Notes: generated by a model from the letters alone, not told the origin. Shown: positions 4,098 through 64,000, counted from the stretch's first letter. The stretch is DNA of 64,000 nucleotides from an uncultured Gemmatimonadaceae bacterium (GCA_963817955.1 CAWFQK010000004.1:1344001-1408000); one strand, 5' to 3'. Numbers and translations: made by a program.

Positions 4098-4709
4098 ACA
4101 GACTGTTGAAATACGAGTGAATCGCCAGCAATCGGTTACGCGGCTGCGAAGATCGTGATCTGAGCGACGCCTGTCATCCTGAGCGACGCCTGTCATCCTG
4201 AGCGACGGCCTGTCATCCTGAGCGACGGCCTGTCATCCTGAGCGACGGCCTGTCATCCTGAGCGACGGGCTGTCATCCTGAGCGAAAGCGAAGGATCTCT
4301 GTGACCGATAGACCAGCTTTTGAACGCAGAGGACGCAGAGAACTGCAGGAGGTCGCAGAGAACTGCAAGAGAACTGCAGAGAACCGTGAAGGATTGTCTC
4401 GCCTGGGCGTCTTGGCTGATGCCGTCGTGAGGCTCCGATGGTATCGCCCAGATCGGGATCATCAACGATATGGGCGGAATGATTGTGGACTCGGCAATCA
4501 GGTTCATTCCACCAATACGCCCTTCCCCCTTCCGCACGCTTCCAGTTCTCTTTTGCAGTTCTCTGTTGCAGTTCTCTGTTGCAGTTCTCTGCAGTTCTCT
4601 TGCAGTTCTCTGCGTCCTCTGCGTTCAAAAGCTGTTGCGCCGTTTGCGTTAAAAGACCGTCCGGCCCTCGAAGTGATCTGACTCCTGTTCAGCTATTTCA
4701 ACAGTCTGT
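4098..4709. mobile_element. Composite MITE-like element, copy 1
   Basis: Perfect terminal IR ACAGACTGTTGAAATA/TATTTCAACAGTCTGT. Contains 6 tandem TGTCATCCTGAGCG units ending in GCGAAGGATCT and inner inverted AACGCAGAGGACGCAGAGAACTGCA arms. Homologous to 8738-9291 and 30796-31362. Confidence 0.8.
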
Positions 4710-4824
4710 TAACGCTCGGAGTCCAATCCACGCTGTACCGACCAGCGATCGTGGCTTGCGAGCCAGGGCCACCCGCGCGACTACCCTGCACGATTGATGA
4801 GATTTACTCCGCGTTCCTCCACCG

Positions 4825-8738: not shown

Positions 8739-9291
8739 CAGACTGTTGAACTACGAGTGAATCGCCAGCAATCGGTTACGCGGCTGCGAAGATCGTGATC
8801 TGAGCGACGCCTGTCATCCTGAGCGACGGCCTGTCATCCTGAGCGACGGCCTGTCATCCTGAGCGAAAGCGAAGGATCTCTGTGACCGATAGACCAGCTT
8901 TTTAACGCAGAGGACGCAGAGAACTGCAGGAGGACGCAGAGAACTGCAGGAGGTCGCAGAGAACTGCAAGAGAACTGCAGAGAACTGCAAAAAGAGAACT
9001 GTAAGCGTACGGAAGAGGGAAGCGCGTATAGGTGGAATGAACCGTGATTGCCGAGTCCACAATCATTCCGCCTATGTCGTTAATGATCACGACCTGGGCG
9101 ATACCATCGGAGCATCACGACGGCATCATCCAAGATATCGGGATAAGATCTACTCGGTGTTCCTCTGCGGTTCTCTGCGTTCTCTTCAGTTCTCTGCGTC
9201 CTCTGCGTTGAAAAAAAGCCCTCCAACCCTCGAATTGATGCGCACGCCCTCGAGCTTCTGACTCGTGTCCAGCACTATTTCAAAAGTCTGT
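8738..9291. mobile_element. Composite MITE-like element, copy 2 (core inverted)
   Basis: Ends ACAGACTGTTGAACTA/TATTTCAAAAGTCTGT; 3 TGTCATCCTGAGCG units; core is the reverse complement of the copy 1 core. Confidence 0.78.
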
Positions 9292-12995: not shown

Positions 12996-13052
12996 GCGGT
13001 CAGAATCTGTTGCCGCGGACGGCGGACAAGCTGTTTCCCGCAGACGGTGCAA

Positions 13053-13306
13053 CAGCTTTTGAACGCAGAGGACGCAGAGAACTACAAGAGGTCGCAGAGA
13101 ACTGCAAGAGAACTGCAAGAGAACTGCAGAGGAACACCGCGTAGTCGCATCCGGATGTCTTGGATGATGCCGTCGTGACGCTCGGAGTCGCGAAACTGGG
13201 GGATGGGATTATCCGAATGGTGAATCGCCTCCAGTGTTCCCCCCTTCAGTTCTCTTTGCAGTTCTCTGCAGTTCTCTTGCAGTTCTCTGCGACCTCTGCG
13301 TTAAAA
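13053..13306. repeat. Stand-alone inner module of the composite repeat (inverted GCAGAGAACT arms plus diverged core)
   Basis: CAGCTTTTGAACGCAGAGGACGCAGAGAACT ... AGTTCTCTGCGACCTCTGCGTTAAAA; core shares TTGGATGATGCCGTCGTGA. Confidence 0.75.
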
Positions 13307-13459
13307 AAACAAGCCGTCCCGCCCCCGACCCCCTGCAATGCGGTAAACAAACAAGCCGAGACGCCCGAGATCACCCACACCGACCCCCCATAAACAACAA
13401 ATCCGGGCTCGACTCGAGCCCGGATCACCAACGTTCATTCCACGGTCGTGGATCGCTCG

Positions 13460-14337: not shown

Positions 14338-14461
14338 GTGCGCCTCCCGGCTCAAAAGCGTACTCCGCACCTATCAAAGGCAGGGCCCGTGCCATATCGC
14401 CGATCTCAGGCACAGCGTCGTGCGGCCGCACTCAGGCGCACGGGCAATTAGATTCTCTCTG

Positions 14462-14545
14462 CGACCGGGGTGCCTGCCCACTGAGGGTGCAGGCTGAGAG
14501 AGACCCGTAGAACCTGATCCGGTTCATACCGGCGTAGGGAGTCGG
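14462..14545 (+). promoter_or_regulatory. TPP riboswitch
   Basis: GGGGTGC...GCTGAGAG.GACCC.TAGAACCTGATCCGGTTCATACCGGCGTAGGGA matches the TPP aptamer consensus. Confidence 0.93.
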
Positions 14546-14549
14546 AAAA

Positions 14550-16643
14550 ATGCTTTGTTCAGTCTCGCCGGCGGTGCGTCGCCGCGCCCGGAGCGTCGCG
14601 CTCGCGACGTCCGCACTCGTCATCCTCACATCCGTCACACAGGCCCAGGTCGCGTCAAAGGACAGCGCGCGAGCTGATTCCAGTCGCGCCCAGCGATTGG
14701 AGCGCGTGATGATCTCCGCGGTCCGCGGATCCGGTACCGCGCCAATTTCGCAGAAGACGATCACGGCGGCAGATATCAAGCCGCGGTATTTCGGACAGGA
14801 CGTTCCGCTCCTGCTGCAGGGCGCGGCCCCATCGCTCACGTCATACGCCGAAACAGGCAATTATTGGGGTTATAGCTACATCCGTCTGCGTGGCATCGAC
14901 CAATCGCGCATCAACCTCACGCTGGATGGGATTCCGCTGAACGACCCGGAAGACCAGGTCCTCTACTTCGCGGACTTTCCCGACCTCGCCAACAGCCTTG
15001 GGTCGGTGCAGATCCAGCGCGGCGTGGGAACGACGAGCAACGGTACCGCGTCATACGCCGGCTCGATCAACATGGAGACGATCCCGCTGGCGGCAACGGC
15101 ACGCGGCGGTGAGGCGCAATTCGAAAGCGGTTCGTTCGGCTCCAGGCGGGTGAGCGCCGAATACACGACGGGACTCCTCCCGAGCCGGTTCGCCGCGTAC
15201 GCACGCCTCTCGGCGCTGCACACCGACGGCTATCGCTATCACTCCGGCGTGGAGGGACGCTCGGCGTTCCTCAGCGCCGGGTATTTCGGTGACCGCGACA
15301 TCGTGAAGTTCACGACGACGACTGGCACCATGCAGGACACGATGGCGTACCTCGCGGTGGCGGCGTCGGACCTCGCGACGGATCGGCGCATCAACCCCCT
15401 CACGCCACGGGAGCGTGACGGGTTCACCGAGCGGCTGGCCGCGCTGTCGTACGTCCGGTTACTCTCGCCGTCGTCATCCTGGTCCACGACGGCGTATCGC
15501 ATCTCGTCGAGCGGCGACTATGACGTGCTCGTCGACTCGCTCGACAACTTCAATCTGAAGTTCGTCTGGTACGGCATCACGAGCGACTGGAACTACCGTC
15601 ACGACGGTGTTCAACTCGACGTGGGCGTGAACGCAAACACCTACGCGCGCGATCATGCAGCGTACCAGCAGCCCGACATCACGGATCCCCTGTACGTCAA
15701 CACGGGCCACAAGCAGGACGCCAGCCAGTTCGCCAAGCTGGCGTATACCGCCGGCGCCGCCACGCTGTTCGGCGACGTACAGACGCGCCAAGCCGAGTTC
15801 CGCTACACGCCCGATGCCCACGCGGGAATCCCCGAGCGATCCATCACGTGGACGTTTCTCAATCCGAAGGCCGGCATCACGTACGTACTCAGTGCCCCGC
15901 TGTCGCTCTATGCGTCCTACGGCAAGAACACGCGCGAGCCGGCGCGTAGCGACATGTTCGCCGGCTTTGATAATCTCGATACGTCGAATGTGGCGTTCGT
16001 CGGGGATCTCAGCCGCGTGAAGCCGGAGACAGTGCACGATCTGGAGACCGGCCTCACCTACCGCGGCACGGCGTTCGACGCGCAAGCGAACGTGTACTCG
16101 ATGGACTTCCGTAACGAGATCGCTCCGGTCGGAGCACTCAGTTACATCGGCACGCCCCTGCGAAAGAATGTTGCATCGAGCTATCGCCGCGGTGTCGAGG
16201 TGGACATCACCTATCGCGGCATTCCCCGTCTTCTCCTGTCGGGGAACGCTACGGGGAGCACGAATCGCATCCGGCAGTACACCGACTCGAGCGGGGACAC
16301 CGTCGCCACATACCACAATGCGCAGCCACTGCTCACGCCCCGTTTTCAGACATTCGCCCGCGGGGCTTTCACTGCCACGCGCGCACTGACGCTGGCGCTC
16401 GAATCTCGCTATCAGAGCCGCTCCTTTCTCCAGAACACGAGCGACCCGCAGTACGTGCTGCCGGCCGCGTTCAATCTCGACGGCAGCGTGTCGTGGCGCG
16501 TGGACCGTTACGAGTTGCTCGTCCGCGGAAACAATCTCACGAACAGCAAACGGTACGGCAGCGGCTACGGTTACGGCGGAATCTCGTACTATTATGTCGT
16601 GCCGCCGCGGAATGTATTTGTCACGGCGAAGGTGGACTGGTAG
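14550..16643 (+). CDS. TonB-dependent receptor, probably for thiamine
   Basis: Plug motifs IRLRGID.SRIN.TLDGIPLND and VQIQRG; C-terminal W; directly after the TPP riboswitch. Confidence 0.88.
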   Translation: MLCSVSPAVRRRARSVALATSALVILTSVTQAQVASKDSARADSSRAQRLERVMISAVRGSGTAPISQKTITAADIKPRYFGQDVPLLLQGAAPSLTSYAETGNYWGYSYIRLRGIDQSRINLTLDGIPLNDPEDQVLYFADFPDLANSLGSVQIQRGVGTTSNGTASYAGSINMETIPLAATARGGEAQFESGSFGSRRVSAEYTTGLLPSRFAAYARLSALHTDGYRYHSGVEGRSAFLSAGYFGDRDIVKFTTTTGTMQDTMAYLAVAASDLATDRRINPLTPRERDGFTERLAALSYVRLLSPSSSWSTTAYRISSSGDYDVLVDSLDNFNLKFVWYGITSDWNYRHDGVQLDVGVNANTYARDHAAYQQPDITDPLYVNTGHKQDASQFAKLAYTAGAATLFGDVQTRQAEFRYTPDAHAGIPERSITWTFLNPKAGITYVLSAPLSLYASYGKNTREPARSDMFAGFDNLDTSNVAFVGDLSRVKPETVHDLETGLTYRGTAFDAQANVYSMDFRNEIAPVGALSYIGTPLRKNVASSYRRGVEVDITYRGIPRLLLSGNATGSTNRIRQYTDSSGDTVATYHNAQPLLTPRFQTFARGAFTATRALTLALESRYQSRSFLQNTSDPQYVLPAAFNLDGSVSWRVDRYELLVRGNNLTNSKRYGSGYGYGGISYYYVVPPRNVFVTAKVDW

Positions 16644-29438: not shown

Positions 29439-29551
29439 TCATGGCAGCCGGCCTCGGCAAGGCAGCCACAGCCGTGGGCCCACGAGTTTCGGTGGTGGCG
29501 TTGGCGGTCGAACGGTCCCAGCGGCCAGACTCTATCGCGGATATTCCCGAC

Positions 29552-30565
29552 ATGTCCCAGCCGCCACTCATTCCGCTTGCGCATCTCACGGCCCTCCCCG
29601 ATCCGGAGCGCCGGTTCCGGTTGATGGAAATCGTGCGGCGGCGGTTGCGCGAACGTCGATACAGTCGCCGGACTGAGGAAGCCTACGTCCATTGGATCCG
29701 TCGATACATCATCTATAACGAGAGGCGCCATCCGCGGGATCTCGGGGAAACGGAGGTTCGACGCTTTCTCTCTTCTCTCGCGACCGAGGAGCGTGTCGCG
29801 GCATCCACGCAGAACCAGGCTCTTTCGGCCGTGACGTTTCTGTACGACCGCGTGCTCGAGCGACCGCTGACGCGCATCGAGGGCATTCAGCCGGCGCGGC
29901 GATCCCGGCATGTGCCCGTCGTGATGAGCGTGGCCGAGGTCCGCGCGATCCTGACGAAGCTCGAGACTCCGGTGCGACTCTGCGCCGCTATCATGTATGG
30001 AAGCGGCCTCCGGCTCATGGAGTGCATGACGCTGCGGGTCAAGGATGTGGACCTCGATCGTCGAGAGATCGTCGTGCGGGATGGGAAAGGTGGCAAGGAT
30101 CGCCGCACGCCGCTGGCGGAACGCTGCGTGGCACCGCTCATCCGGCTATTGGCCGCGGAGCAGGATTGCTTTCGACGCGACACCCGCGCTGGGGTGCGCA
30201 CCACCGACCTGCCGGCTGCGGTCTCGAGAAAGTATCCGAACGCCGAGGCGGAGTATCGGTGGCGGTATCTCTTTGCCGCTTCCCGTACCTTCACCGACGC
30301 CAACGGCGTCCGCCGGCGTCATCACCTGCACGAAAGCGCCGTGCAGCGTGCGTTCAAGAACGCAGTGACTGCGGCGGGGATCACCAAGCGCGCGACCTGT
30401 CATTCGCTTCGTCATTCCTTCGCCACCCACCTGCTCGAATCCGGCGCTGACATCCGGACAGTGCAGGAGTTGCTTGGCCACAGCGATCTGCGCACGACGA
30501 TGATCTACACGCCTGTCCTCAATCGCGGCGGCTTGGGCGTACGCAGTCCGGCGGATGCGCTGTAG
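29552..30565 (+). CDS. intI: Integron integrase
   Basis: [33 protein letters not shown], the IntI-specific insert KYPNA....W.YLF...[32 protein letters not shown]. Confidence 0.96.
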
Positions 30566-30797: not shown

Positions 30798-31362
30798 CGA
30801 CTGTTGGAATACGAGTGAATCGCCAGCAATCGGTTACGCGGCTGCGACGATCGTGATCTGAGCGACGCCTGTCATCCTGAGCGACGGCCTGTCATCCTGA
30901 GCGAAAGCGAAGGATCTCTGTGACCGATAGACCAGCTTTTTAACGCAGCGGACGCAGAGAACTGCAGGAGGTCGCAGAGAACTGCAAGAGAACTGCAGAG
31001 AACCGTGAAGGATTGTCTCGCCTGGAAGGCTTGGATGATGCCGTCGTGAGGCTCCGATGGTATCGCTCAGGTCGGGATCATCAACGATATGGGCGGAATG
31101 ATTGTGGACTCGGCAAGCACGGTTCATTCCACCGATACGCGCTTCCCTCTTCCGTACGCTTCCAGTTCTCTCTTACAGTTCTCTGCAGCATTCTTTTGCA
31201 GTTCTCTTTTGCAGTTTTCTGTTGCAGTTCTCTGCAGTTCTCTGCAGTTCTCTTGCAGTTCTCTGCGTCCTCTGCGTTCAAAAGCTGTTGCGCCGTTTGC
31301 GTTTAAAGGCCGTCCGGCCCTCGAAGTGATCGGACTCCTGTTCAGCTATTTCAACAGTCTGT
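30796..31362. mobile_element. Composite MITE-like element, copy 3, at the attI/first-cassette junction
   Basis: Ends GCCGACTGTTGGAATA/TATTTCAACAGTCTGT; 2 TGTCATCCTGAGCG units; right end runs into GTTAGGC at 31361. Confidence 0.8.
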
Positions 31363-31388
31363 TAGGCGCACCATCGAGCACCTCTATC

Positions 31389-34662: not shown

Positions 34663-35092
34663 TCATGGACATCTAAGCATGCGCTCCGTATCCGTCGCTG
34701 CTGTCGCGCTGGCGCTCCTCGGTTCGGCGGCGTGGAGACCTTCGCGCCGGAGCAGCGCGCCCAGCTCATTCTCGCTCAAGCCGCGCGCTTCGGTCACCAC
34801 GCGGAGCTTCTCCGCGCCCGTCCACCGCTTCTTCTTCTTCTTCGAGGAACCCATGCCCTCGACGTTACGCGCTTCCCGCAGCCATCGCGAGAGAGAGGCT
34901 GACCGACACCGACCTCGTGCGCGAGGGCGTTGGCACTCATCGCCGACGGCCCGATCAAGCGACGCAGCATTCGGTCCTTGAACGCCGGACTGTATTGCGG
35001 CATGACACTACCCACCTTTGACCCCCGAGGATGCTCTACGTTTGACCGCTTAAGCTACTGCGGTCGTACGACAACTATCCTGACACCGGGGG
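34663..35092 (-). pseudogene. IS3-like transposase orfA remnant with one IS end
   Basis: MPQYSPAFKDRMLRRL.GP...SA.ALA.EVGV, then frameshifted W...EKLRVV.EA..L...ELGALLRREGLH; end CCCCCCGGTGTCAGGATAG. Confidence 0.65.
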
Positions 35093-36248
35093 GTCCGGGA
35101 TCGCGGACGTTAGGTCGCTTGCACCGTCAGTTGCCTTGGATCGTAGCGTTCTCCTCGTTTCCACAGTCGTAACGTGATCGCCGCGAGCTTCCGCGCGAGC
35201 GTCACCCGCGCCAGTTCCTCTCGCATGCCGCGGCTGACCAATCCCTGATACCACTCCCGCAACGCGGCCGTGGCGGCACCTTTGAACACATCCTTCACCA
35301 CGCGGGAGCTAATGTCGAAAGGTGTGGAAATAGACGGAAGGCGGTGACACCTTCTCGGGTGAGCCAATCACCCCCGGGAGAATCCCGGCAACGAAAAGGA
35401 GCCACCGCCCATGAAGAAGATGAAGGATGAGCCAGCCACGTCAAGCGCGACGTGGGACACATTGGAATCCTTTGCCCGGATGCATGTCCAAGGATTCATT
35501 CAGCAGCTGTTGGAAGAAGAGGTGACCGAGCTGCTCGGTCGAGCGAAGTCCGCGCGCCGTGGCGCGGTGGATGCGCCGGCCGGGGCGCGCAACGGGCACG
35601 GGAAGCCGCGGACCCTCGCGCTCATGAATGGGACCATCGTGGTGCGCCGGCCACGGGTGCGCGACCTGGATGAGCTGTTCGTGAGCCGCCTGCTGCCGCT
35701 CTTTCAGCGGCGCACCAAGGAACTGAGCACGCTGTTGCCCGAGCTGTATTTGCATGGCCTCGCGCTCGGGGATTTCGAACTCGCGCTCCGCGGCCTGTTG
35801 GGCGACGGGGCGCCGCTGAGTGCGAGCTCGCTTGTGCGCCTCAAGGCGACGTGGCAGGCGGAGTATGCGGTGTGGCAGCGGCGCGACCTGAGCGCCCTCA
35901 AGCTGGTGTATCTCTGGGCGGACGGCGTGTATGTGAAAGCGGGGCTTGAGCATAGCAAGGCGGCGCTCCTGGTGTTGATCGGCGCCGACGCGGAGGGGCG
36001 GAAACACGTCCTCGCGGTGACCAGTGGCGAGCGGGAATCGGTGGTGAGCTGGACCGCCGTGCTCCGCGACCTGAAGGCGCGCGGGCTCTGCGCCCCCAAG
36101 CTCACGACCCCGGCGGCCACCCAAACTCCCCCACCTGTGGCCACCTCAAAATCCCCCACCCGCTGATGGGTAGCGGCGCCTAATCCGAGGCGCCGAAACG
36201 GCAGGACGTACACTCCTCCTCGACTCTTTTTCGGGGAGTAACCACGGA

Positions 36249-37841
36249 GTGAACGTCTTGAAACCGCATCGACGCATCATGGTCGAGACGCTGCTGGCCA
36301 GCGGCGCGACGCACCGAGAGATCGAACGACGCACGGGCGTGGATCGAAAGACGATCCGCCGGTACGCGCGGGGCCCGGCCCCCAATGCGTCAAACTCCCC
36401 CACCCCGGCCACCGGCTTTGACGAGGCGGTTGCGCAAACTCCTCCACCCCGGCCACCGGCTTTGGCGGAGCGAGACGTCGTCGCGCAGGCGACGGTCACG
36501 GCGCCGACGCCCCGATGGACGCCCTCCGCGTGCGAGCCCCATCGCGCGTGGCTCGAGACCCAAGTCCAACTCGGGCGCAACGCCGTGAGTCTCTACCAGG
36601 AGCTCGTGGACGAGCACGGGTTCACGCATCACTACAACTCCGTCAAACGGTTCGTTGCCACGCTGCGACGGCGCGAACCGGAGCGATTCGATGTCTTGGC
36701 GTACCTGCCCGGCGAGGAGGCCCAAGTCGACTACGGCCAAGGGGCGTTGACGCTGTGGAAGCCCGATCACTACAAGCGACCGTACCTGTTCGTGATGACG
36801 CTCAAGTATTCCGGGAAGAGCTTTCGCAAGGTCGTCTGGAAGACGAATCAAGAGATATGGGCGCGGTTACACGAGGAGGCCTTCCGCACGTTTGGCGGCT
36901 GCCCAGCGTACGTGGTATTAGACAACTTAAAAGAGGGCGTACTCCGACCCGACCTCTACGAGCCCGAGCTGAACCCGGTGTACGCGGCGATGCTCGCCCA
37001 CTATGGCGTCGTGGCGGATCCGTGCCGCGTGCGGGATCCCAATCGCAAAGGGACCGTCGAAAGCGCGATCCAGCACACCCAAGGCACGGCCCTCAAAGGG
37101 AAACGGTTCGCGGCGATCGACGCGCAGAACGTGTATCTCGCGACGTGGGAAGAGCGCTGGGCCGCGACGCGCATCCACGGCCGCAAGAAGCGGCAAGTGC
37201 TCGAGATGTATCGCGAGGAGCAGCCGCACCTTCGCGCGCTCCCGGCCATGCCCATGCAGTACTTCACGCAAGGCACCCGCACTGTCGACGATAGTGGGCT
37301 CGTGCAAGTCAGCGCGTCGTACTACTCGGCGTTACCGGCCGCGCCGACGAGCACGGTCACCGTCCGCCTCTACGCGCGCGAGATCGAGATCCTCGATGCC
37401 GCCGGCCAACTGCTCCGCCGACACGAGATCGCCCCGCGCAAGGGGACCTTCACGATGGACGAGACGGATCGGCTCTTCAATCCCTCGCGCGAGACGGCTC
37501 GCTTGCTGAACAAAGCCGCGCGGATCGGTCCCCACACCGCCGCCTTCGCGCAGCATCTCTTTGCCCATCTCGGCCGGCCGGGCCAACGCGCGCTGTACGG
37601 CCTGACCAATCTCGTCCGCACCTACTCGTGCGCCAACATCGACGCCGTCTGTGCGCGCCTGGTTGCGGCCGAGTGTGTCACCTATGCCGCCGTGAAGCGC
37701 GCCCTGGAACGCACGTGCGCCCCGGACGCGTCGCCCACCCGGCCCATGCTGACGCAGACCGGCCCGGCGATCCGCGCCATCGCTGAGTACCAGGACTTCT
37801 GGGATACGCATTCACACACTCTCCTGCCGGAGCCCCGCTGA
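36249..37841 (+). CDS. istA: IS21 transposase IstA
   Basis: PGEEAQVDYG, VVLDNLK, P.RKGTVE DDE motifs. Confidence 0.93.
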   Translation: MNVLKPHRRIMVETLLASGATHREIERRTGVDRKTIRRYARGPAPNASNSPTPATGFDEAVAQTPPPRPPALAERDVVAQATVTAPTPRWTPSACEPHRAWLETQVQLGRNAVSLYQELVDEHGFTHHYNSVKRFVATLRRREPERFDVLAYLPGEEAQVDYGQGALTLWKPDHYKRPYLFVMTLKYSGKSFRKVVWKTNQEIWARLHEEAFRTFGGCPAYVVLDNLKEGVLRPDLYEPELNPVYAAMLAHYGVVADPCRVRDPNRKGTVESAIQHTQGTALKGKRFAAIDAQNVYLATWEERWAATRIHGRKKRQVLEMYREEQPHLRALPAMPMQYFTQGTRTVDDSGLVQVSASYYSALPAAPTSTVTVRLYAREIEILDAAGQLLRRHEIAPRKGTFTMDETDRLFNPSRETARLLNKAARIGPHTAAFAQHLFAHLGRPGQRALYGLTNLVRTYSCANIDAVCARLVAAECVTYAAVKRALERTCAPDASPTRPMLTQTGPAIRAIAEYQDFWDTHSHTLLPEPR

Positions 37842-38608
37842 TGCCGATGTCCATCCCCGAGCTTGAACGCGCCCTCACCAATCTCCGCCTCTCCGGCATG
37901 ACGGCCACGCTGGAAGCCCGCGCGCTGCAAGTGGCCAGTCACGAGATGGGCTTTCTTGAGGCCTTCTCCTGGCTCGTGCAAGATGAACTCGACCGTCGTC
38001 GCTCCCGGCTGCTCGATCGGCGCCACACCCTCTCGGGACTCCCCGACCGCAAGGACCTCACGAGCTTCGACTGGACCTACAATCCGCGCCTCCCGAAACG
38101 CGACGTCCTCGACCTCGCGACGCTCAAGTTTCTTGACGCCAAGGAAGACGTGCTCGTCCTCGGTCCGCCCGGCACCGGCAAAAGTCACGTCGCCAAAGCG
38201 CTTGCCACCACCGCCGTTAGTCGAGGCTACAAGGTGCTCTATCGCGAAGCGCATCAGCTCATCGAAGACATCACCGAGGCGCGCGAGCTGGGAGAGATTC
38301 GGAAACTGCGTGCCCAGATCGCCGCCGCAGACCTACTCCTGGTCGACGATCTCTTTCTGCGCAAGCTCCCGACGACGGCCGGTGACGAACTCGCCGACGT
38401 CCTCATGGCTCGCCACGAAAAAGCGTCCACGATGATCACGTCCAACCGACCACTCGAGGACTGGACGCGACTCCTCGGGGATGTCGTCGTCGTCACCCCG
38501 CTCCTCGACCGCCTGATGCACCATGGCCATTTGCTCAAGTTTGATGGCAAGAGCTGGCGGCTGAAAGAGGCTGCCGCTCGGGCAGCCAAACAGAAGGCAG
38601 CGAACTAA
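37841..38608 (+). CDS. istB: IS21 helper ATPase IstB
   Basis: GPPGTGKSH, LLLVDD, ITSN, LLDRL.HH, G.SWR. Confidence 0.93.
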   Translation: MPMSIPELERALTNLRLSGMTATLEARALQVASHEMGFLEAFSWLVQDELDRRRSRLLDRRHTLSGLPDRKDLTSFDWTYNPRLPKRDVLDLATLKFLDAKEDVLVLGPPGTGKSHVAKALATTAVSRGYKVLYREAHQLIEDITEARELGEIRKLRAQIAAADLLLVDDLFLRKLPTTAGDELADVLMARHEKASTMITSNRPLEDWTRLLGDVVVVTPLLDRLMHHGHLLKFDGKSWRLKEAAARAAKQKAAN

Positions 38609-40265
38609 CTTCCCCTCGTCCTGCCGGCCATCAAGTGGAGGAGTTTGACCCGGCCACAGGTGGGGGAGTTTGAGGTGGCCACCGGGGCTCACGATCGCCG
38701 ATGGGCATCTCGGCCTCTGGGGCGCTCTCGCGGCAATCTATCCGACGAGTGCCGAGCAGCGGTGTTGGAATCACAAGCTGCGGAACGTGCTCGACCTGGT
38801 GCCGACGAAACGCCAAGCCGAAGTCACCGTGCAGCTCCAGCAGATCGCCGCGGCGGAGACACAGCGGGCGGCGGAGCGGCTGCGCGACGCGTTTGCCCGC
38901 ACGTACCGTCGCGTGGTGCCCAAAGCCGTCGAGTGCCTCGAGCGGGATTGGGACCGCCTGGTCGCGTACTACGCCTTTCCGCAGGAGCACTGGAAGCATC
39001 TGCGCACGACGAACGTGATCGAGTCTCCGTTTGCCGCGGTGCGGCTCCGCACGACCGCGGCGAAGCGCTTCAAGAAAGTGGAGAACGCCACGACGTTGAT
39101 CTGGAAGACCTTACTCGTCGTCGAACAACATTTCCGCAAACTGAACGCCCCGCACCGCTGCACCGACGTGTACGATGGCGCCGTATTTCACGACGGAATC
39201 TGCACCGTGACCCCGACCCGGGAACGGATCGCCGCCTGACGCCTATTTACACACCAATTGACAAGAGCTCTCACCCGGTTGTGATTGCGATTGAGGCCAC
39301 GCGTCTGCACATACCGCCGCCGGCGGCGCACCGGCCGCTGACCGTCGAGCTCGTACTCGGCACTGGTCCGGGTGACGACCGCGAGGCCCGCGTAGGCCCA
39401 GAGGTGGCGCTTCGTGCGGAAGCGCCAGGGCGTCTGCAGCGTCGCGAGGAGGAGCGCGACCCGCACCGGTCCGAGATACGGAATGCTGCGCAGCCCGGCC
39501 CACGCCGGATCTCGTTTCGCTTCCGCGAGCATCGCCGCCTTCGCCTTGGGGCGTAGCTGCTGCAGGACCGCGAGTTCGTCGTACAATGTCGCGGCCCGGA
39601 ACCGCACGCCCCGCTCCGCCAACTGCTGCAGCCACGTCCGGCGCCGAGCTGTTTGATAGACGGCGGTGCCGGGCGTCTTGATGCCGCGCGCCCGAAACAA
39701 CGCCTTGAGCCGTTGCATCACGCGCGTCGAGTCCTCGACGAGATTGGCATAGGTCCGCGCCAGCTCTTTGAGCGTGGCCCGATCGGCACTGCCATGATAG
39801 ACAGCCCGGAGCCGCCCAGAGCGCAGCAATTCCGACAACTCGTCGGCATCCGGCTGATCGCCCTTGTTGCCTTGCGGGGCTTGTCCGCGCCGGTTGCACA
39901 CGAGGACCCGGTCCACCACGGGCACGAGCAGATCGTGCAGCCACTGCGCCTGCGTGCCTTCCTCAAACGCGACGTGGACGGAGCCACGCATGCCGCGGAA
40001 CCAGTCCACGATCGGCGCGGCCTCCGTTGGCAAAATGGTCCGCGCGATCACGCGTCCCGTCTCCTCTCGCACCGTCGTCCCCGTAGTTGCCTGGTGCACA
40101 TCGAGCCCGACATACTTCAGCGTCCGTTTCATGAGAGCGCCTCCTGGCTGGGAGCTGTGGTTGCTCAACAACTCCACATGACCCGTCAGGGGCGCGCGCT
40201 CAATATCCGTTAGCTCGCCACCTAGTAACGCTTTACGTTATGGGCGGCCAGCGTTATTATTGCAG

Positions 40266-46359: not shown

Positions 46360-47025
46360 GAGGATGTAGGAAAACCCTAATTGGCTGGCGAGCCGACCGC
46401 GCCGCGTCGTCGATGCGCGGCGGCGGAACTGGTCAGGCGTGTGGCGGCGGAATGCCGGTGACGACCGTGTTTCGGCGCGTTGTACCCCTCGGAACGGTGC
46501 CCCGCACCTACGCCGCGTACCCGTAGTGTGCGAGTTTCTCGATGTTGTGCACGAGACAGAACAGCTTCCATTGCGTCTCGACTTTGCGGCGGCCGCGCAG
46601 GGTGAAGCGATCGAGCCCTTTGTTGTAGCACAGTTTGCCGAACACCGGTTCCACGGCGCCGATGCGTTCCGCATACCGCCGCCGCCCCTCCGGCGAATCA
46701 ATGCGCCGTTTCATGCGGGCGGTGTGCGACTCGGGCAGCGGGGCCGTCTTGCCCTGGAAGAACATGACGGAGCGCACCTTCGTGGTCGACGGCGTCTCGA
46801 GACACCGGGCGCGCAGGACGCACGGGCCACAGTCGCGTTGCTTCCCCTGAAAGCGCGTCCAGATGTTGTCGCGATTCACCCACTGGGCGCCGCTCCGGTT
46901 GAGCACCTTGCCCGCCGGGCAGATGCACGTCCGCGCCTCGGCGTCGTACGTGCAGGCACTCGCCGGAAACACGGCGGCTGCCTGCACCGGAGCAGGATCC
47001 GCCTTGTCGTGCAGCGGATTGTGGA
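46360..47025 (-). mobile_element. IS1182-family element, truncated copy (3' part only)
   Basis: IR GAGGATGTAGGAAAA directly after attC R'' GTATAAC; C-terminal CPAG, C..C.LR..C, VEPVFG, RF.LRG, HNI.KL. Confidence 0.85.
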
Positions 47026-48182: not shown

Positions 48183-49802
48183 GAGGATGTAGGAAAACCC
48201 TAATTGGCTGGCGAGCCGACCGCGCCGCGTCGTCGATGCGCGGCGGCGGCGGAACTGGTCTGGCGTGCGGCGGCGGAATGCCGGTGACGACCGTGTTTCG
48301 GCGCGTTGTACCCCTCGGAACGGTGCCCCGCACCGACGCCGCGTACCCGTAGTGTGCGAGTTTCTCGATGTTGTGCACGAGACAGAACAGCTTCCACTGC
48401 GTCTCGACTTTGCGGCGGCCGCGCAGGGTGAAGCGATCGAGCCCTTTGTTGTGGCATATATTGCCGAACACCGGTTCCACGGCGCCGAAGCGTTTCGCAT
48501 ACCGCCGCCGCCCCTCCGGCGAATCAATGCGCCGTTTCATGCGGGCGGTGTGCGACTCGGGCAGCGGGGCCGTCTTGCCCTGGAAGAACATGACGGAGCG
48601 CACCTTCGTGGTCGACGGCGTCTCGAGACACCGGGCGCGCAGGACGCACGGGCCACAGTCGCGTTGCTTCCCCTGAAAGCGCGTCCAGATGTTGTCGCGA
48701 TTCACCCACTGGGCGCCGCTCCGGTTGAGCACCTTGCCCGCCGGGCAGATGCACGTCCGCGCCTCGGCGTCGTACGTGCAGGCACTCGCCGGAAACACGG
48801 CGGCTGCCTACACCGGAGCAGGATTCGCCTTGTCGTGCAGCGGATTGTGGAAGGCTTTGTGGTGATCCTGCGTGGCGAAGCGCTCATCTCGGCGGCGCAT
48901 GTCGTTGTCCGCGATGAGCGCGTCGACCGACATCGCGGCGAGTTGCTGCACGTTCGCGTCGCTGTGGTAGCCTGCATCGGCCGTGATCAATGACTCCGCC
49001 GTGAGCAGTCCTTGCATTGCCGCGACGAAGGGATTCTGCTGGAGCCACTCCCGGACCTGCGCCGCATCGTTCTCCAGGCGCTCGACGCGTTGCTTCTCCT
49101 TCTCCAGCAGCGTCGGCTCCGCCGACAGCTGATCCGCTGCGCGATGGCGCGCGAGGATCGTCTGCGCGGCAGCTTCGAGCTTCGTCGCCTGTCGCTCGAA
49201 GTCGGCGCGCGTCCCGCTCCGTCGCTTCGCCGCGTTGCTGGGGAACTTCACCCCATCGATGGCGAACAGCTCGCGACCGATCAGTCCCTCGGCATCGCAG
49301 GTCGCCACCACGGCCGCGAACACGCGAGCGATGTCATCGCCCACCGTGCTCACGAAGTGCGCGATCGTGGTGAAATGCGGGGCCGTGTCGCCTGAGAGCG
49401 ATGAACGTGACCTGCTCGCGACAGGCGCGCTCGATGCCCCGGCTGCTGATGATCCCATGGGCGTAGGCGACGAGCACGACCTTGAGGAGCATCGCCGGTG
49501 GATACGCGGGCGCGCCGGTGTCGTCGTTCTGGAATCGCTCATCGAAGCGTGGGAGGTCGATCGCGTGATCCAGCAGGTGATTGACCGCGTGTTCGAACGT
49601 GCCCGGAAGCAGTTGGCGCGCGAGATCAATGGCCAAGAACTTCGGATTGGTGTCGATGTACTTGTAGCGAGCCATGGCAGGACACCGGAGGAGGGTCAAC
49701 CGCGATGTGCACAGCGCTCCACGCCCGACGCTTCTTCAACCCGCCAGTTGCTTCGCGAGTCACCTCACCACAGACTCTATCGCAGGCTTTTTCTACAGCC
49801 TC
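48183..49802 (-). mobile_element. IS1182-family element with both ends; transposase is a pseudogene
   Basis: IRs GAGGATGTAGGAAAA/TTTTTCTACAGCCTC with 3-bp DR AAC. The ORF from 49675 has a frameshift near 49395, an apparent internal deletion and a TAG at 48808 (CAG in the other copy). Confidence 0.88.
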
Positions 49803-49917: not shown

Positions 49918-50673
49918 ATGACAGTCGGTAGCCAACTCGACCTACGCCACTTCGCGCTGAGTGTTCTCGCATGCGATGCACCAGATGCGACACCTACGCA
50001 GATCTGCGGAACGGCCTTTGCGATAGGAGGCGGCTATTTTGTCACAGCCGCGCACGTGCTTGACACCGTGCTCGAGTCACGCGCTCCCTCTCTTGGCTTT
50101 CTACCAGATCAAGCCCCGCTCGGACCAGTAGCATACTACCAGGCTCCGATCACCCGGCATGAGATCGTGCGAGGCCTTGACCTCGGAATTATCGCGTGTG
50201 CTGGTGGACCCTACGGCACTTTTCAGTGGTTCGGCAGAGATGTTGCCCTCCTGACAAACGTCTTGGCTGGCGGCTATCCGTACGCGCTCGAGCGCGATCG
50301 TTTGCAAGTGTTTGTTCGCGCCTATCGTGGTTCCATCGCCTCAGCGCATCAGATATATCAGCTTCCCGACGAGCCTGGCGGATACGAACTTTCATTTCCG
50401 GCGCCGCGAGGGTTGTCCGGGGCACCGCTGCTACTTCAGCAAATGCCGCCAATTGTGGTCGGCTATATCGTAGAGAATGGCCGCTCTGGCATGCTGGTCA
50501 TGAGCCATCGTGAATCGATTGCTGAATCGTCCTCGGAGACGGTTGTTGAGCAGTATGAGTACCTGACTTACGGGATTGCCGTGAGCTCAAGTGCAGTGGT
50601 AGAGGTTCAGAGTGAGCTGCTGGGCGGGACGATCAAAGATCACTTGAAGCGTCACAACCTATTCATAGATTGA
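49918..50673 (+). CDS. Cassette: trypsin-like serine protease
   Basis: GTAF, VTAAHV, DLGII, GYP, GLSGAP catalytic triad motifs; no signal peptide. Confidence 0.82.
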   Translation: MTVGSQLDLRHFALSVLACDAPDATPTQICGTAFAIGGGYFVTAAHVLDTVLESRAPSLGFLPDQAPLGPVAYYQAPITRHEIVRGLDLGIIACAGGPYGTFQWFGRDVALLTNVLAGGYPYALERDRLQVFVRAYRGSIASAHQIYQLPDEPGGYELSFPAPRGLSGAPLLLQQMPPIVVGYIVENGRSGMLVMSHRESIAESSSETVVEQYEYLTYGIAVSSSAVVEVQSELLGGTIKDHLKRHNLFID

Positions 50674-50690
50674 TTTCGATCCGCGATGCA

Positions 50691-50780
50691 GCATAACGTG
50701 CGTTGCACCAGCCGGGCGAGCTTTGGTAGCTCGCTGCGCTCGCATTTTGTTTGATTCGCCCCCAGGTAAACTCGGGCGTT
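50691..50780 (+). other. attC site (R' split by IS110-B)
   Basis: GCATAAC...CAGGTAAA-CTCGGGCGTT|IS|AGACC. Confidence 0.85.
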
Positions 50781-50849
50781 GATATGACTGGGCTGGTGTC
50801 AAACGCTTAGTTCATTCGACGGTCACTGCGTTGGTAGTTGTGATGTAAG

Positions 50850-51070
50850 TGGATCGTGGAACGACGGGGGGCCGAGGCAGCATCGACGATGAATCCTGCT
50901 GATATGCGCCGGTTGCCGCGACGCGGCAGAGCGGCAAGAATTGGATTCGTCGGGAGCTGGCTCATTCTAGGCTCGGGGATCCCGCTATCACATGGAACGC
51001 ACGGGCCGCCATAACGCCGTCGAGAGTACTCGCACATCGAGCCTCGGCACCGCACGTCGGACCACGATCA
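50850..51070 (-). ncRNA. Putative bridge/seek RNA of IS110-B
   Basis: Minus strand carries CGGCGTTA and GCCTA (attC core flanks), then CATATCAG (own circle junction); boundaries approximate. Confidence 0.6.
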
Positions 51071-51076
51071 CCTGGG

Positions 51077-52226
51077 TCATGCCGCTTGCACCGGCTCGAG
51101 CTCGCGCATCACGGCCCACAGGAAGCCGACGAGTTCGCGCGCCACGGCCACGACGGCGATCTGTGGGCGCTTCCGATAGCTCAGATGATTGTATCGTTGG
51201 TGCAGCCGCTGCTGCGCTTTCCAGGCGTGGGTGAGCACCGCGGGCGGTAGCCCTTGCTGTCGCCGCTTGAGATCGACGCTGATCTGCGGACGATGCCGAT
51301 AGCTCCACGCCGCCTGCACGAGCACATGGCGGCAATGACTGTTGGCCGCCGTCGTGATCGAACCAAGCCGCACCTGATTGCCACTCGAGTCTTCGCGTGA
51401 GACGAGCCCGAGGTAGCAGGCGAGTTGGCGCGGATGCTCGAACCGCCGCCAGCCGACGAACTCCGTGGCCTGCACCATAGCGGAGTACACCGAGATGCCG
51501 CGGAAGCACTGCAACTGCCTCACCATCGGGACGAGCGTTGGGAGTTCGGCGAGCCGCTCGATCTGTCGATCCAACTCCTCGCGCCGCTGCAGCTTGTACA
51601 GCAACAACGCGTGGAACTCTCGATAGATGAGCCGGTCATCCGAGGCGAGCGGCGACCCGTCCGTCGTGAGGTGCTGGAGCCATTGGAGGTGCGGCGTGCA
51701 CCAATTGGTGCCCTCGGGAAACACAAAGCCGCGACGCGCGAGGAACTTGAGGATGTAGTGCCGCGACTTGAGGATCTCGCGTTGAAAGATCTCACGACAG
51801 CGGACGACATCACGGACGCGCTCCTCAGCTTCACTGGGGATGCGCACGGGGACCAGCTCGCCCGCGCGATAGAGTCGCGCCAGGTCTGCGGCATCGCGCT
51901 TGTCATGTTTCCGTTGGACCCCGGGCCGCTTGGGAATCAGCGAGGGCGCGATCACGTCACACGCGTAGCCCCACTCGCGGAGCGCACGATGCAGCACGTA
52001 GCCCGTGCCACTCGCTGGCGTAACAGGCGCGCAGATCGCCGGCCCGGGCTGTCCGTGCCAGCCATTTCTTGAGGACCGGCAAGTCGTTGGTCAGCTTCTC
52101 GAGCCGGGTCGGCGTTGTCGCCGCCGCGGGTAAGACCGCGATGGTGATCGAGTCCTTGTGCACATCCATCCCGAGATGGATGATAGAGGGAGCAGCAGGC
52201 AGCACGACCGAAGGCAGTGATGACAT
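51077..52226 (-). pseudogene. IS110 DEDD recombinase, frameshifted near 52017
   Basis: GMDVHK, CY-(frameshift, E lost)-ASG.GY, KHDKRDA, EDSSG, VAVAREL. Confidence 0.85.
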
Positions 52227-52364
52227 GGGTTGGTCGCCGTGTACGACACGTCGGATCGTCGCAGGTGGCTCTGGGAACTCCGTCTCAACGCGTGAGGAAC
52301 TAATCCACGCTAAGATCGGAGGCCAGCCAGTCATAACTTCTAGACCAACAGAACAGATTCTCCC

Positions 52365-53075: not shown

Positions 53076-53229
53076 CTATGAGAGTGATTGTCAAGAGCGC
53101 TCTTCGTGCCGGCTGATCGTTTCACCTTTTTCTTCTTGGCAATCAGCCCCGACTCTTTCCTGGCGCGCGAGACCTTCCGCCGGGCAGTCTGCTTTGGCAT
53201 CGTTGTCCTCCCCGTCACTCCAAGGGTTC

Positions 53230-53470
53230 GATCGGACGTGTGCAAGCGATTGGGTCGCGCGGAGGCGAACCATGGTTCTATCTGAGACTCGGCCGCACGG
53301 GCCGGCCTGTCGCTTATTCGGGTTCTGCGGAAGGGCCTATGGTTAGCCGAGTGCCTCGGCGGGACTGCTTGGCCGGGCGAACGCCCAAGATGAGACTGTC
53401 TTCCGCACCCACGTCCCGAATCCTGGAGCCGAGCGGGGGGCAAACGCCCACCTCACGGCGTCCGGGATCG
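53230..53470 (-). ncRNA. Putative bridge/seek RNA of IS110-A
   Basis: Minus strand carries TTGGGCGTT and GGCTAAC (target flanks), then ATAGAAC (own end junction); boundaries approximate. Confidence 0.65.
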
Positions 53471-53476
53471 CGGACG

Positions 53477-54544
53477 TTAGGTCGCTTGCACCGTCAGTTG
53501 CGTTGGATCGTAGCGTTCTCCTCGTTTCCACAGTCGTAACGTGATCGCCGCGAGCTTGCGCGCGAGCGTCACCCGCGCCAGTTCCTCTCGCATGCCGCGG
53601 CTGAGCAATCCCTGATACCAGTCCCGCAACGCGCCCGGCCGCACGGACGCGGCCGTGGCCGCCCCTTTGAACACATCCTTCACCACGCGGTTGTGATTGC
53701 GATTGAGGCCGCGCGTCTGCACATACCGCCGCCGACGGCGCACCGGCCGCTGACCGTCGAGCTCGTACTCGGCGCTGGTCCGGGTGACGACCGCGAGGCC
53801 CGCGTAGGCCCAGAGGTGGCGCTTCGTGCGGAAGCGCCAGGGCGTCTGCAGCGTCGCGAGGAGGAGCGCGACCCGCACCGGTCCGAGATACGGAATGCTG
53901 CGCAGCCCGGCCCACGCCGGATCTCGTTTCGCTTCCGCGAGCATCGCCGCCTTCGCCTTGGGGCGTAGCTGCTGCAGGACCGCGAGTTCGTCGTACAATG
54001 TCGCGGCCCGGAACCGCACGCCCCGCTCCGCCAACTGCTGCAGCCACGTCCGGCGCCGAGCTGTTTGATAGACGGCGGTGCCGGGCGTCTTGATGCCGCG
54101 CGCCCGAAACAACGCCTTGAGCCGTTGCATCACGCGCGTCGAGTCCTCGACGAGGTTGGTATAGGTCCGCGCCAGCTCCTTGAGGGTCGCGCGATCGCGA
54201 CTGCCATGATAGACGGCCCGGAGCCGCCCGCAGCGCAGCAACTCCGACAACTCGTCGGCATCCGGCTGATCGCCCTTGTTGCCTTGCGGGGCTTGTCCGC
54301 GCCGGTTGCACACGAGGACCCGGTCCACCACGGGCACGAGCAGATCGTGCAGCCACTGCGCCTGCGTGCCTTCCTCAAACGCGACGTGGACGGAGCCACG
54401 CATGCCGCGGAACCAGTCCACGATCGGCGCGGCCTCCGTTGGCAAAATGGTGCGCGCGATCACGCGTCCCGTCTCCTCTCGCACCGTCGTCACCGTAGTT
54501 GCCTGGTGCACATCGAGCCCGACATACTTCAGCGTCCGTTTCAT
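53477..54544 (-). CDS. IS110 DEDD recombinase
   Basis: YVGLDVHQ, VAFEEG, KGDQPDA, WAYAGL...TS, LARKLA; uninterrupted 355 aa. Confidence 0.92.
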   Translation of the reverse strand: MKRTLKYVGLDVHQATTVTTVREETGRVIARTILPTEAAPIVDWFRGMRGSVHVAFEEGTQAQWLHDLLVPVVDRVLVCNRRGQAPQGNKGDQPDADELSELLRCGRLRAVYHGSRDRATLKELARTYTNLVEDSTRVMQRLKALFRARGIKTPGTAVYQTARRRTWLQQLAERGVRFRAATLYDELAVLQQLRPKAKAAMLAEAKRDPAWAGLRSIPYLGPVRVALLLATLQTPWRFRTKRHLWAYAGLAVVTRTSAEYELDGQRPVRRRRRYVQTRGLNRNHNRVVKDVFKGAATAASVRPGALRDWYQGLLSRGMREELARVTLARKLAAITLRLWKRGERYDPTQLTVQAT

Positions 54545-54652
54545 GAGAGCGCCTCCTGGCTGGGAGCTGTGGTTGCTCAACAACTCCACATGACCCGTCA
54601 GGGGCGCGCTCTCAATATCCGTTAGCCTGCAACCCTGCCTCCCAACGGCTCC

Positions 54653-62650: not shown

Positions 62651-62859
62651 GCATCGTCGAGCCGTTCGGGGCGGCGAACGAGACGGGGCGTGCCGCGACA
62701 AAATCTGCGCTGCGGCGGAGCGTCGCCAAGGTACTGCCTTCACGGTATTTCGTATGGCCTTCATGTGGCCACGGGGACGCTGAAAAAGAGCTGCACCACG
62801 CCGAGCGCCGGATGCGCCGGAGGAAAGAGCGAACAACCGACGTGAGACGTGTCGCGATC

Positions 62860-64000
62860 TCCATCGGAAGCGACGGACTCGTCGTCGGAAGCGACGGAAG
62901 GGTCGTCGGGAGAGACGGAATGGTCGTCGGGAGAGACGGAAGGGTCGTCGGGAGAGACGGAATGGTCGTCAGAACCGACCGAGTCGCCTTCGGAAGAGTT
63001 GGAGTCGCGTTCGGAAGAATCGGAGCCTCGTTCAGACCGGTCGGTGTTTGCGTGAGAAGCGATGGTCTTGCGTGTCACGCGAGGAGTCCGTCCTCGACGC
63101 GAGCGCCTGCGCGCTTCACGATCGGGCGTGGGGCCTGCACAAGAGACGATTCCATCGGCTAGGTCAGCCATCCCTGCTGTTACGTCAGCCATCCCTGCTG
63201 AACGCGAGCGACTGGGTCCTGAACGCCGAGCCATTGCCTGTGGACGCGGACCCATTCCAGGTTGACCAGGATCTATTCCACGTCGACACGGGTCTATTCC
63301 ACGTCAATGCGGGTGAGTCCCTCGTGGCATCGCGCGAGAGAGGCCTCAACGGCCGAGAGTCTGACGTTGACGGCGACGACTCCTCACGTGACGCCCGTCG
63401 ATCCCTCCGGCACGGCGCGCAGTTGGTGGTGAGCACGCGGGCATCCGAGCTGAACGAGCCGGAAAGCCTCCTGGACGACCGCGAGTCCGATGTTGACTGC
63501 GAGGAGTTCGTGCTTGCACGCGAGCCGTTCGTGCTTGACCGCGAGGGGTTCGTGCTTGACCGCGCGCCGTGCCATCTCACCACGGGCGAGTCACCCCTCG
63601 ACACGCGTGGGTTCCCTCTCGACCGGAAGGACTCCGCCCTGACCGAGACGCACTCTCAGGTGGACGTCATGGCATCCCAGCGAACGGAGCGAGGATTGTG
63701 GGTGGACGCGCGGGAGAGGGGTGTTGACGAGAGACGGTCCGATGTGGGGCGAGCGGCATTCGGGCTTGACACCGGGGTGTTCCCTCTTGACCGGAGTGAC
63801 TCCACCCTGAACAGCGGCTGGTGCGAGCTGGACGCGCCGGAGTCCCTGCTCGACCGGCGCTCATTCCGTCTCGACCGCGAGGGATTCCTCCTGCACACGC
63901 GTCAATTCGGTCGAGACAGCGAGGACTTCCACCTTCACACGCGTGAATTCGGTCTCGACCGCGAGGACTTCCACCTGCACACGCGTCAATTCGGTCTCGA
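62860..64000 (+). repeat. 21-bp periodic degenerate repeat region; + frame open from 63072 to the window end
   Basis: Units such as GTCGTCGGGAGAGACGGAAGG and TTCGTGCTTGACCGCGAG; translates as [LV]Dxxx[FS]x heptads. Confidence 0.7.

Follow-up and report, generated by a model that had tools for sequence, protein, structure and literature searches.

A cassette array belonging to an integron was identified in the window, a 64,000-nucleotide stretch of DNA from an uncultured Gemmatimonadaceae bacterium (GCA_963817955.1, CAWFQK010000004.1:1344001-1408000). The array is a real integron. The integron integrase gene (intI) is located at 29441-30565 on the plus strand (TIGR02249, 414.6 bits; cut-off 265), and nearby an imperfect palindrome of the R''...R' type follows each cassette. 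The corresponding repeat families, whose consensus is GCCTAACGAACGCTG on the R'' side and GGGCGTTAKRC on the R' side, occur repeatedly between about 31.7 kb and 55.1 kb. The gene intI shares its strand with the cassettes and the attC sites, whereas the classical layout is divergent. Other features of the array include a broken DDE transposase gene at 48808-49699 (DUF772 and DDE_Tnp_1 pieces in two frames) and a 300-bp direct repeat (46400-46699 and 48226-48525; 94% identity), which is possibly a duplicated cassette. Repeats of 100-600 bp that are rich in GCAGAGAACTGCA-like short units (D1, D5, D6, D8, D10, D11 and D13) are present at 4100-4710, 8740-9215, 13050-13310 and 30800-31365, and one copy of them sits between intI and the first attC. 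Elsewhere in the window, a TPP riboswitch (RF00059, 76.6 bits) was found at 14456-14557 upstream of an open reading frame at 14550-16643, and coding-looking sequence at the window end contains tandem repeats with periods of 21 nt and 42 nt (62843-63010 and 63839-63996).

Two insertion sequences of the IS110 family interrupt attC sites of this array. The first, element B, is a 1560-bp IS1111-type insertion sequence at 50781-52340 on the minus strand, whose ends were set by the junctions of 55 relatives and whose type was assigned with Pfam and NCBIfam. The second, element A, occupies 53076-54620 on the minus strand, likewise in an R' site, with AAC at both junctions. The attC that is split by element B belongs to the cassette at 49918-50673. 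It extends on the plus strand from R'' (GCATAAC) to the GCGTT of the R' core at 50686-50780, as seen from alignment with four intact attC sites and from repeat families D4, D16 and D20, and the 3' remainder of the core (T-AGACC) lies at 52341-52346 in the attC alignment. On the plus strand of the window, the left junction reads CTCGGGCGT-T|GATATGACTGG and the right junction reads CCAGTCATAACTTC|T-AGACC, and the T at 50780 is the base common to both. When aligned with the four intact attC sites and the site of element A, the site of element B is an ordinary attC with about 95 nt from R'' to GCGTT, where the end of the insertion sequence starts. After GCGTT the intact sites go on with ATAC, AGGC or ATGC, whereas this one goes on with the element. 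The attC column broken by element A in its own site is the column broken by element B, and element B is inserted antisense to the cassettes.

The C-terminal piece of the element B transposase matches DEDD_Tnp_IS110 (PF01548) and Transposase_20 (PF02371), and the NCBIfam model NF033542 scores 164.5 bits against a cut-off of 140. The element therefore has the N-terminal RuvC-like DEDD domain and the C-terminal Transposase_20 domain of the IS110 family. A subterminal inverted repeat is present at each end. The right-end arm, CCAGCCCAGTCAT in element orientation, is 13 bp long and lies 3 nt from the end (50784-50796, minus strand), and the left-end arm, ATGACTGG-CTGG, is 12 bp long and lies 6 nt from the end (52323-52334, minus strand), so that ATGACTGG is found at 50784-50791 and its complement at 52327-52334. 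The inverted repeat of the relatives is 13 bp (ATGACTGGGCTGG), within the 7-17 bp of the IS1111 group, and the window copy is short of one G in the left-end arm. The transposase gene begins with an ATG at 52226 and stops at 51077, which leaves 114 nt upstream and 296 nt downstream of the gene; such a long 3' non-coding region, with a structured RNA downstream of the transposase gene, is also a character of the IS1111 group. Element B reads GLVSREDSSG at the IS1111 motif GL-P----S(t)G, with Ser where the motif has Pro, and its intact relatives are mostly 375-402 amino acids long (n = 34 with the element sequence recovered), versus 330-350 amino acids stated for the group.

The recombinase of the window copy is frameshifted, as the first-pass annotation had reported. 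The N-terminal part is encoded in a first frame (52019-52226, minus strand; MSSLPS...GMDVHKDSI...) and the C-terminal 306 codons in a second (51077-51997, minus strand). Comparison with five intact relatives (75-80% nucleotide identity) places one extra base near 52018, inside the codons of the C-Y-E-A-S-G motif (52016-52022), where the catalytic Glu codon is gone. Because of the frameshift, the lost Glu codon and the indel in one inverted repeat, this copy is a dead fossil that cannot move by itself. It is the only copy of element B in the 4.5-Mb genome, and its guides remain those of the main attC-targeting group described below.

Relatives of element B were collected from species-representative genomes using the 306-amino-acid C-terminal piece as query. 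The search recovered 78 loci with 48-89% identity, nearly all labelled Gemmatimonadota, and the element B protein was found in 35 of 301 sampled genomes of the family at E<=1e-60, a tally that includes the unpublished genome G033. Anchoring on the conserved inverted repeats gave 56 right ends (55 relatives and the window copy) and 33 properly paired left ends. The first-pass annotation had derived an attC target from the window copy, and the flanks of the other copies bear this out. The right flank starts with AAC in 52 of 56 elements and with AACG in 48 of 56, and with AACGCC in 35 of 55, and the left flank terminates in TA in 32 of 33 (CTA in 28, ATA in 4). The pattern of the lineage is thus ..YCTA | element | AACGCC.., and since the two flanks joined, YCTA-A-CGCC, are the complement of GGCG-T-TAGR, the site is the attC R' core. 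A motif complementary to R'' occurs 46-106 nt away, mostly at 71-82 nt (about 75 nt), in 30 of the 54 right flanks that are at least 120 nt long, versus 7 of 55 left-side control flanks. An ungapped inverted-repeat test for attC was passed by 2 of 54 right flanks and by 27 of 1080 shuffles; it was too insensitive, and the motif test was used instead. The specificity for attC is typical of the lineage and is not absolute, because the strict R'' motif is absent from 24 of the 54 long right flanks and several relatives, a minority that includes L025, L036, L037 and L062, lie clearly outside attC.

A bridge/seek RNA of 195 nt is predicted at 50865-51059 on the minus strand, in the 3' non-coding region of element B. 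The 3'-terminal 330 nt of each of the 56 elements were aligned, and a subset of 33 sequences was folded with RNAalifold. The fold is composed of an outer stem and a pair of domains, in each of which a variable hairpin closes an internal loop, and a covariance model built from this alignment (R1) gives the window copy 197 bits. Compensatory changes are present at 12 of 34 pairs in an alignment that was made by sequence and then folded on itself, and strong covariation is seen in the outer stem and in both hairpins. Pairing is preserved by changes on both sides in, for example, 13 and 15 sequences at two outer-stem pairs and in 10-17 sequences in the first hairpin. The arms of the target loop are GACGGCGTTATG on the 5' side and CCCGAG-CCTAGAAT on the 3' side, and those of the donor loop are AATTCT and CATATCAGCA, respectively. 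Rfam yielded no family at the gathering score in element B. At a relaxed threshold, RF01668 (Pseudomonas sRNA P10) aligns weakly over the donor loop (50886-50955, minus strand; 15.5 bits, E 0.54; the gathering score is 37), and this sRNA family may itself be a guide RNA domain of the IS1111 type.

Three short motifs had been picked out in this region by the first-pass annotation, and all are present on the minus strand at the positions given there: CGGCGTTA (51019-51012), GCCTA (50972-50968) and CATATCAG (50906-50899). They are not chance matches, because GGCGTTA, TAGAA and ATATCAG are kept in 40, 42 and 50 of the 56 aligned right ends, respectively, and because they are placed in the internal loops of a fold that is supported by covariation. 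They are loop arms of this bridge-RNA-like structure, with AATTCT as the candidate fourth arm. The right-target guide CGGCGTTA (51012-51019), on the 5' side of the target loop, is complementary to the top strand TAACGCC across the insertion point. The left-target guide, GCCTA followed by GAA (50965-50972), is on the 3' side of the same loop and reads in the sense of the left flank and of the bases that open the left end. Within the donor loop, the candidate right-donor guide AATTCT (50937-50942) on the 5' side is complementary to A and GAA of the left end, and the left-donor guide CATATCAG (50899-50906) on the 3' side has the sense of the right end CATATC, the shared A and the left-end G. The region thus has the two internal loops of a bridge/seek RNA, with arms that match and covary with both strands of target and donor, the right-donor arm being weak in this respect.

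The right-target guide covaries with the right flank of its own element. Contiguous complementarity was counted from the shared base, and the flanks were permuted 10000 times. The summed match was 286 versus 237.5 +/- 4.5, and none of the 10000 permutations reached it (n = 52; of the 56 elements, two with short flanks and two with unalignable guides were excluded). Among the 19 elements with a flank other than AACGCC the sum was 87 versus 55.7 (permutation maximum 73), and again none of 10000 permutations reached it; since the relatives are kin, these permutation counts overstate independence. The guides of L025, L037, L044, L045 and L056 are quite different from one another and have 7-8 contiguous matches to their own flanks. 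L036 has 8 matches by eye, its row having been mis-anchored in the scripted count, and in L048, L061 and L022 the match does not go beyond 1-4 bases. Retargeting has therefore taken place inside lineage B at >60% identity. The left-target guide is associated with the left flank more weakly than the right-target guide is with the right (101 versus 86.7; 17 of 10000 permutations reach it, n = 32), and in the window copy the guide GCCTA has one mismatch to the site GTCTA. The left-target arm runs on into GAA, with which the left end begins, and in the distant relative L111, where the arm is TAGAC, the left end starts with GAC; the arm thus resembles a guide that may also read the recombinant joint.

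The donor guides partly follow the ends of the elements. CATATC forms the right end of 52 of the 56 elements. In two of the four variants, L036 and L056 (both CATAGC), the guide has a matching TATAGCA, whereas in the other two, L016 and L020, it has no such change. The right-donor guide measures only 4-5 nt, and its covariation with the left end is incomplete: GC-TTCT occurs with GAAGTT in 9 of 9 cases and AC-TTCG with GAAGTT in 3 of 3, whereas AA-TTCT occurs with two left-end variants, GAAAAT (11) and GAAGTT (6).

Selection of the site by protein or by recognition of DNA structure, with the RNA matches being incidental, would be in keeping with the nature of attC, which is a structured and conserved site. 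The retention of the left-flank CTA in the non-attC relative L111 also allows that part of the site is fixed otherwise than by a free guide. The guides, however, change with the flanks in many independent relatives, non-attC sites included, and members of the IS110 family are RNA-guided in experiments, according to PMC11187229 and PMC11208160. We regard recognition without the RNA as very improbable, and guidance by the RNA is the reading followed here.

In essentially all copies of the lineage the two junctions have exactly one base in common (A when read along the element, T on the plus strand of the window). The single shared base is probably the normal exchange geometry of the lineage, and not a tolerated mismatch, because it is constant across the lineage; the tolerated core mismatch suggested from the window copy is not needed. 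An active element B would excise as a circle that joins CATATC-A-GAAG. This predicted junction matches the donor guide CATATCAG, as had been proposed. The hexamer TTGACA at 50797-50802 (minus strand) is -35-like and is conserved as CTTGACA in the right-end alignment. The predicted circle junction would set it 17 nt from the GAAGTT of the left end (GAAAAT in many relatives), and the TTGACA-17-GAAGTT arrangement, split between the two ends in the inserted element, would be assembled as a putative junction promoter. A junction promoter is reportedly known in the family from ISEc11.

For insertion, the RNA would be made, bound by the recombinase and needed for movement. The 5' arm of the target loop (..GGCGTTA) would pair with the top strand TAACGCC, and the 3' arm (..YCTA and GAA), which matches the left flank, would pair with the bottom strand. 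The 5' arm of the donor loop (..TTCT) would pair with the start of the left end, and the opposite arm, CATATCAG on the 3' side, corresponds to the right end and the shared base. The circle would then recombine with duplex attC at the single shared A:T pair, just after GCGTT, in antisense orientation to the cassettes. In our judgement, element B is very probably a decayed copy from a Gemmatimonadota lineage of IS1111-type, RNA-guided DEDD elements whose natural target is the attC R' core.

Element A belongs to a different lineage with the same target. Its transposase is 23% identical to that of element B over 176 amino acids (E 0.005) and scores 117 with NF033542, under the cut-off of 140. Relatives of element A were found in 13 of 300 other sampled genomes of the family (14 of 301 counting its own genome). 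Their left flanks end with YCTAAC and their right flanks start with AAC, so that AAC is duplicated. One relative, L091, is inserted in the R'' side of an attC, which bears the same CTAAC word. The 3' region of the element A relatives contains an arm of 9-10 nt that is perfectly complementary to right flanks that are quite different from each other (L087/L101, L089, L091 and L096), and a second arm, (G/C/T)CTAAC, tracks the left flank in all 6 of 6. Element A thus has covarying guides of 9-10 nt in the order of those of element B, in agreement with the guide order given in the first-pass annotation. The circle junction predicted for element A would likewise place TTGACA 17 nt from GATATT. A second copy of element A is present at 35090-40213, in pieces that are 97-99% identical and are split by an IS21-type element (istA 36249-37841, istB 37841-38608); this copy adjoins a Mutator-family transposase fragment at 35411-36166. 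At an attC in a genome of the same genus, some 160 nt away from an A-type element, lies a B-type bridge RNA reduced to a 3' fragment (L091:3158-3227, minus strand; 52.8 bits with model R1).

A maximum-likelihood tree of 32 rows was constructed with a midpoint root only; the window copy of element B is represented in it by the 306-amino-acid C-terminal piece, and the row A_L095, a wrongly picked 671-amino-acid open reading frame on a very long branch, is to be ignored. Lineage B (16 rows) and lineage A (7 rows) are recovered with support values of 100/100 and 100/99, respectively, and ISPa21 groups with IS4321 (96/94). Lineage B is joined by three non-attC plasmid elements of rhizobial and actinobacterial origin, which are about 42% identical to it (98/95). 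The search for the ends of these outgroups by inverted repeats was noisy, and the ends of L111 were read from the guide matches. Model R1 detects the RNA scaffold in the 3' regions of two of the 42% relatives (L109, 23.8 bits; L111, 20.7 bits) and found nothing in the 3' regions of element A and ISPa21. In L111, an element of a Pseudonocardia plasmid that is 42% identical to element B, the scaffold and the donor guide TATATCAG are kept (1846-2140), and the target guide matches the non-attC flank CTA|GCTGT of that element.

Inheritance of attC targeting by A and B from a common attC-targeting ancestor would account for their common membership of the IS110 family, for 3' guides in the same order, and for the same attC column and orientation. 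It is opposed by the 23% identity (E 0.005) and the separate, well-supported clades, and by the nearest outgroups of B (42% identity), which are outside attC. The junctions also differ, as A duplicates AAC and B shares a single A; the subterminal repeats differ, and the RNA of element A is not detected by model R1. Because retargeting is frequent inside B, even at >60% identity, and the proteins are only 23% identical, descent of the target from one ancestor is much less likely than convergence, and we consider it quite unlikely. The first-pass annotation had described two unrelated lineages that were independently programmed to attC R'. The programming of a second, very distant lineage, with its own guide set for the same R' core, is borne out by the flanks, the covariation and the separate clades. 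The word unrelated goes too far, as both lineages are DEDD elements of the IS110 family, and the independence of the two programming events is drawn from parsimony. We infer that A and B converged on the attC R' core, independently also of the IS1111-attC elements, and this convergence is well supported.

The IS1111-attC elements were compared with element B through one representative, ISPa21 from plasmid pME-1a (named on that plasmid in PMC7232449). PMC3001079 describes these elements as a monophyletic subset whose members are inserted close to the 5' end of attC and in antisense orientation to the cassettes. Element B, too, has the antisense orientation, and the broad family, the subterminal repeats, the 3' guide region and the attC target are common to both, as would be expected if B were a plain member of this subgroup (ISPa21, ISPst6, ISKpn4 and ISPa25). 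The comparison with ISPa21, however, places element B apart. The two transposases are 24% identical over 268 amino acids (22% between ISPa21 and element A), and in the tree, the comparison with known IS1111-attC elements that had been proposed, A, B and ISPa21 fall into separate, well-supported clades, ISPa21 with IS4321 and B with the rhizobial and actinobacterial non-attC elements. ISPa21 sits 5 nt after the R'' AAC of its own attC and leaves R' (GCGTTAGAT) intact, whereas element B breaks the R' core. Model R1, furthermore, finds nothing in the 3' region of ISPa21. Membership of element B in the described subgroup is hardly credible on these grounds, and a separate lineage with its own R' target is preferred.

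It is possible, and we propose it tentatively and with some doubt, that IS110-family elements were programmed onto attC at least three separate times, namely in the IS1111-attC elements at the 5' end and, at the R' crossover core, in each of the lineages A and B, with the Gemmatimonadota guides tracking the local attC consensus and B exchanging strands at one shared base pair instead of an identical core dinucleotide. If this is true, the single-base-pair exchange in B would be a variant recombination geometry within the bridge recombinases. The two lineages are natural, covariation-rich RNA-guided recombinases that appear to be aimed at the most conserved bases of the integron site, and they show integron arrays to be a recurrent landing pad for this class of elements beyond the proteobacterial IS1111-attC elements. 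With an insertion right at G|TT-A, excision of the cassette at that site should be disabled or altered, and parts of chromosomal cassette arrays may become frozen in this way. The reading of targets by IS1111-type bridge RNAs can now be studied on about 50 natural guide/target pairs, handshake-like extensions and a one-base overlap included.

The class of elements to which these lineages belong is already known: IS1111-attC elements were described in 2008-2009, and seek/bridge RNAs, including ones that match attC, in 2024. New here are two further lineages and the R' crossover core as a sub-site, in chromosomal integrons of Gemmatimonadota and backed by a rich natural record of covariation. 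No description of the lineage was found in the literature searched. Among the nearest known elements are the IS1111-attC elements (ISPa21, ISPst6 and ISKpn4; also ISPa25), which share with element B a DEDD transposase, subterminal repeats, a target-matching seekRNA at the 3' side, the attC target and the antisense orientation. Element B differs from ISPa21 in its protein sequence and clade, in its inverted repeat (GGACTCTCCCC in ISPa21) and in an RNA scaffold that model R1 does not detect in ISPa21. The IS1111-attC elements insert near the 5' end of attC in proteobacterial and clinical integrons, whereas element B is inserted at the R' core, the 3' end of attC, in a Gemmatimonadota chromosomal integron.

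The IS1111 seekRNA elements ISEc11 and ISPa11 (Siddiquee et al. 2024, PMC11187229) also have the RNA downstream of the transposase gene. The order of the matches is the same, with the top-strand match on the 5' side of the bottom-strand one; the two overlap where the element inserts, and natural retargeting takes place by guide replacement. Element B has other target and donor sequences, and its lineage has transposases of about 380 amino acids versus 330-350. The bridge RNA of IS621 (Durrant et al. 2024, PMC11208160) has target and donor loops with one arm per DNA strand and an overlap at the crossover, as predicted for element B. The RNA of element B, however, is at the 3' end and that of IS621 at the 5' end, the order of the arms is reversed, and one base is common to the donor and target junctions of element B, whereas IS621 has an identical core dinucleotide. 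The group IIC-attC introns, described in PMC3001079, are another attC-specialised mobile class that inserts antisense to the cassettes; they are retroelements with a ribozyme and a reverse transcriptase, and their mechanism is unrelated to that of element B.
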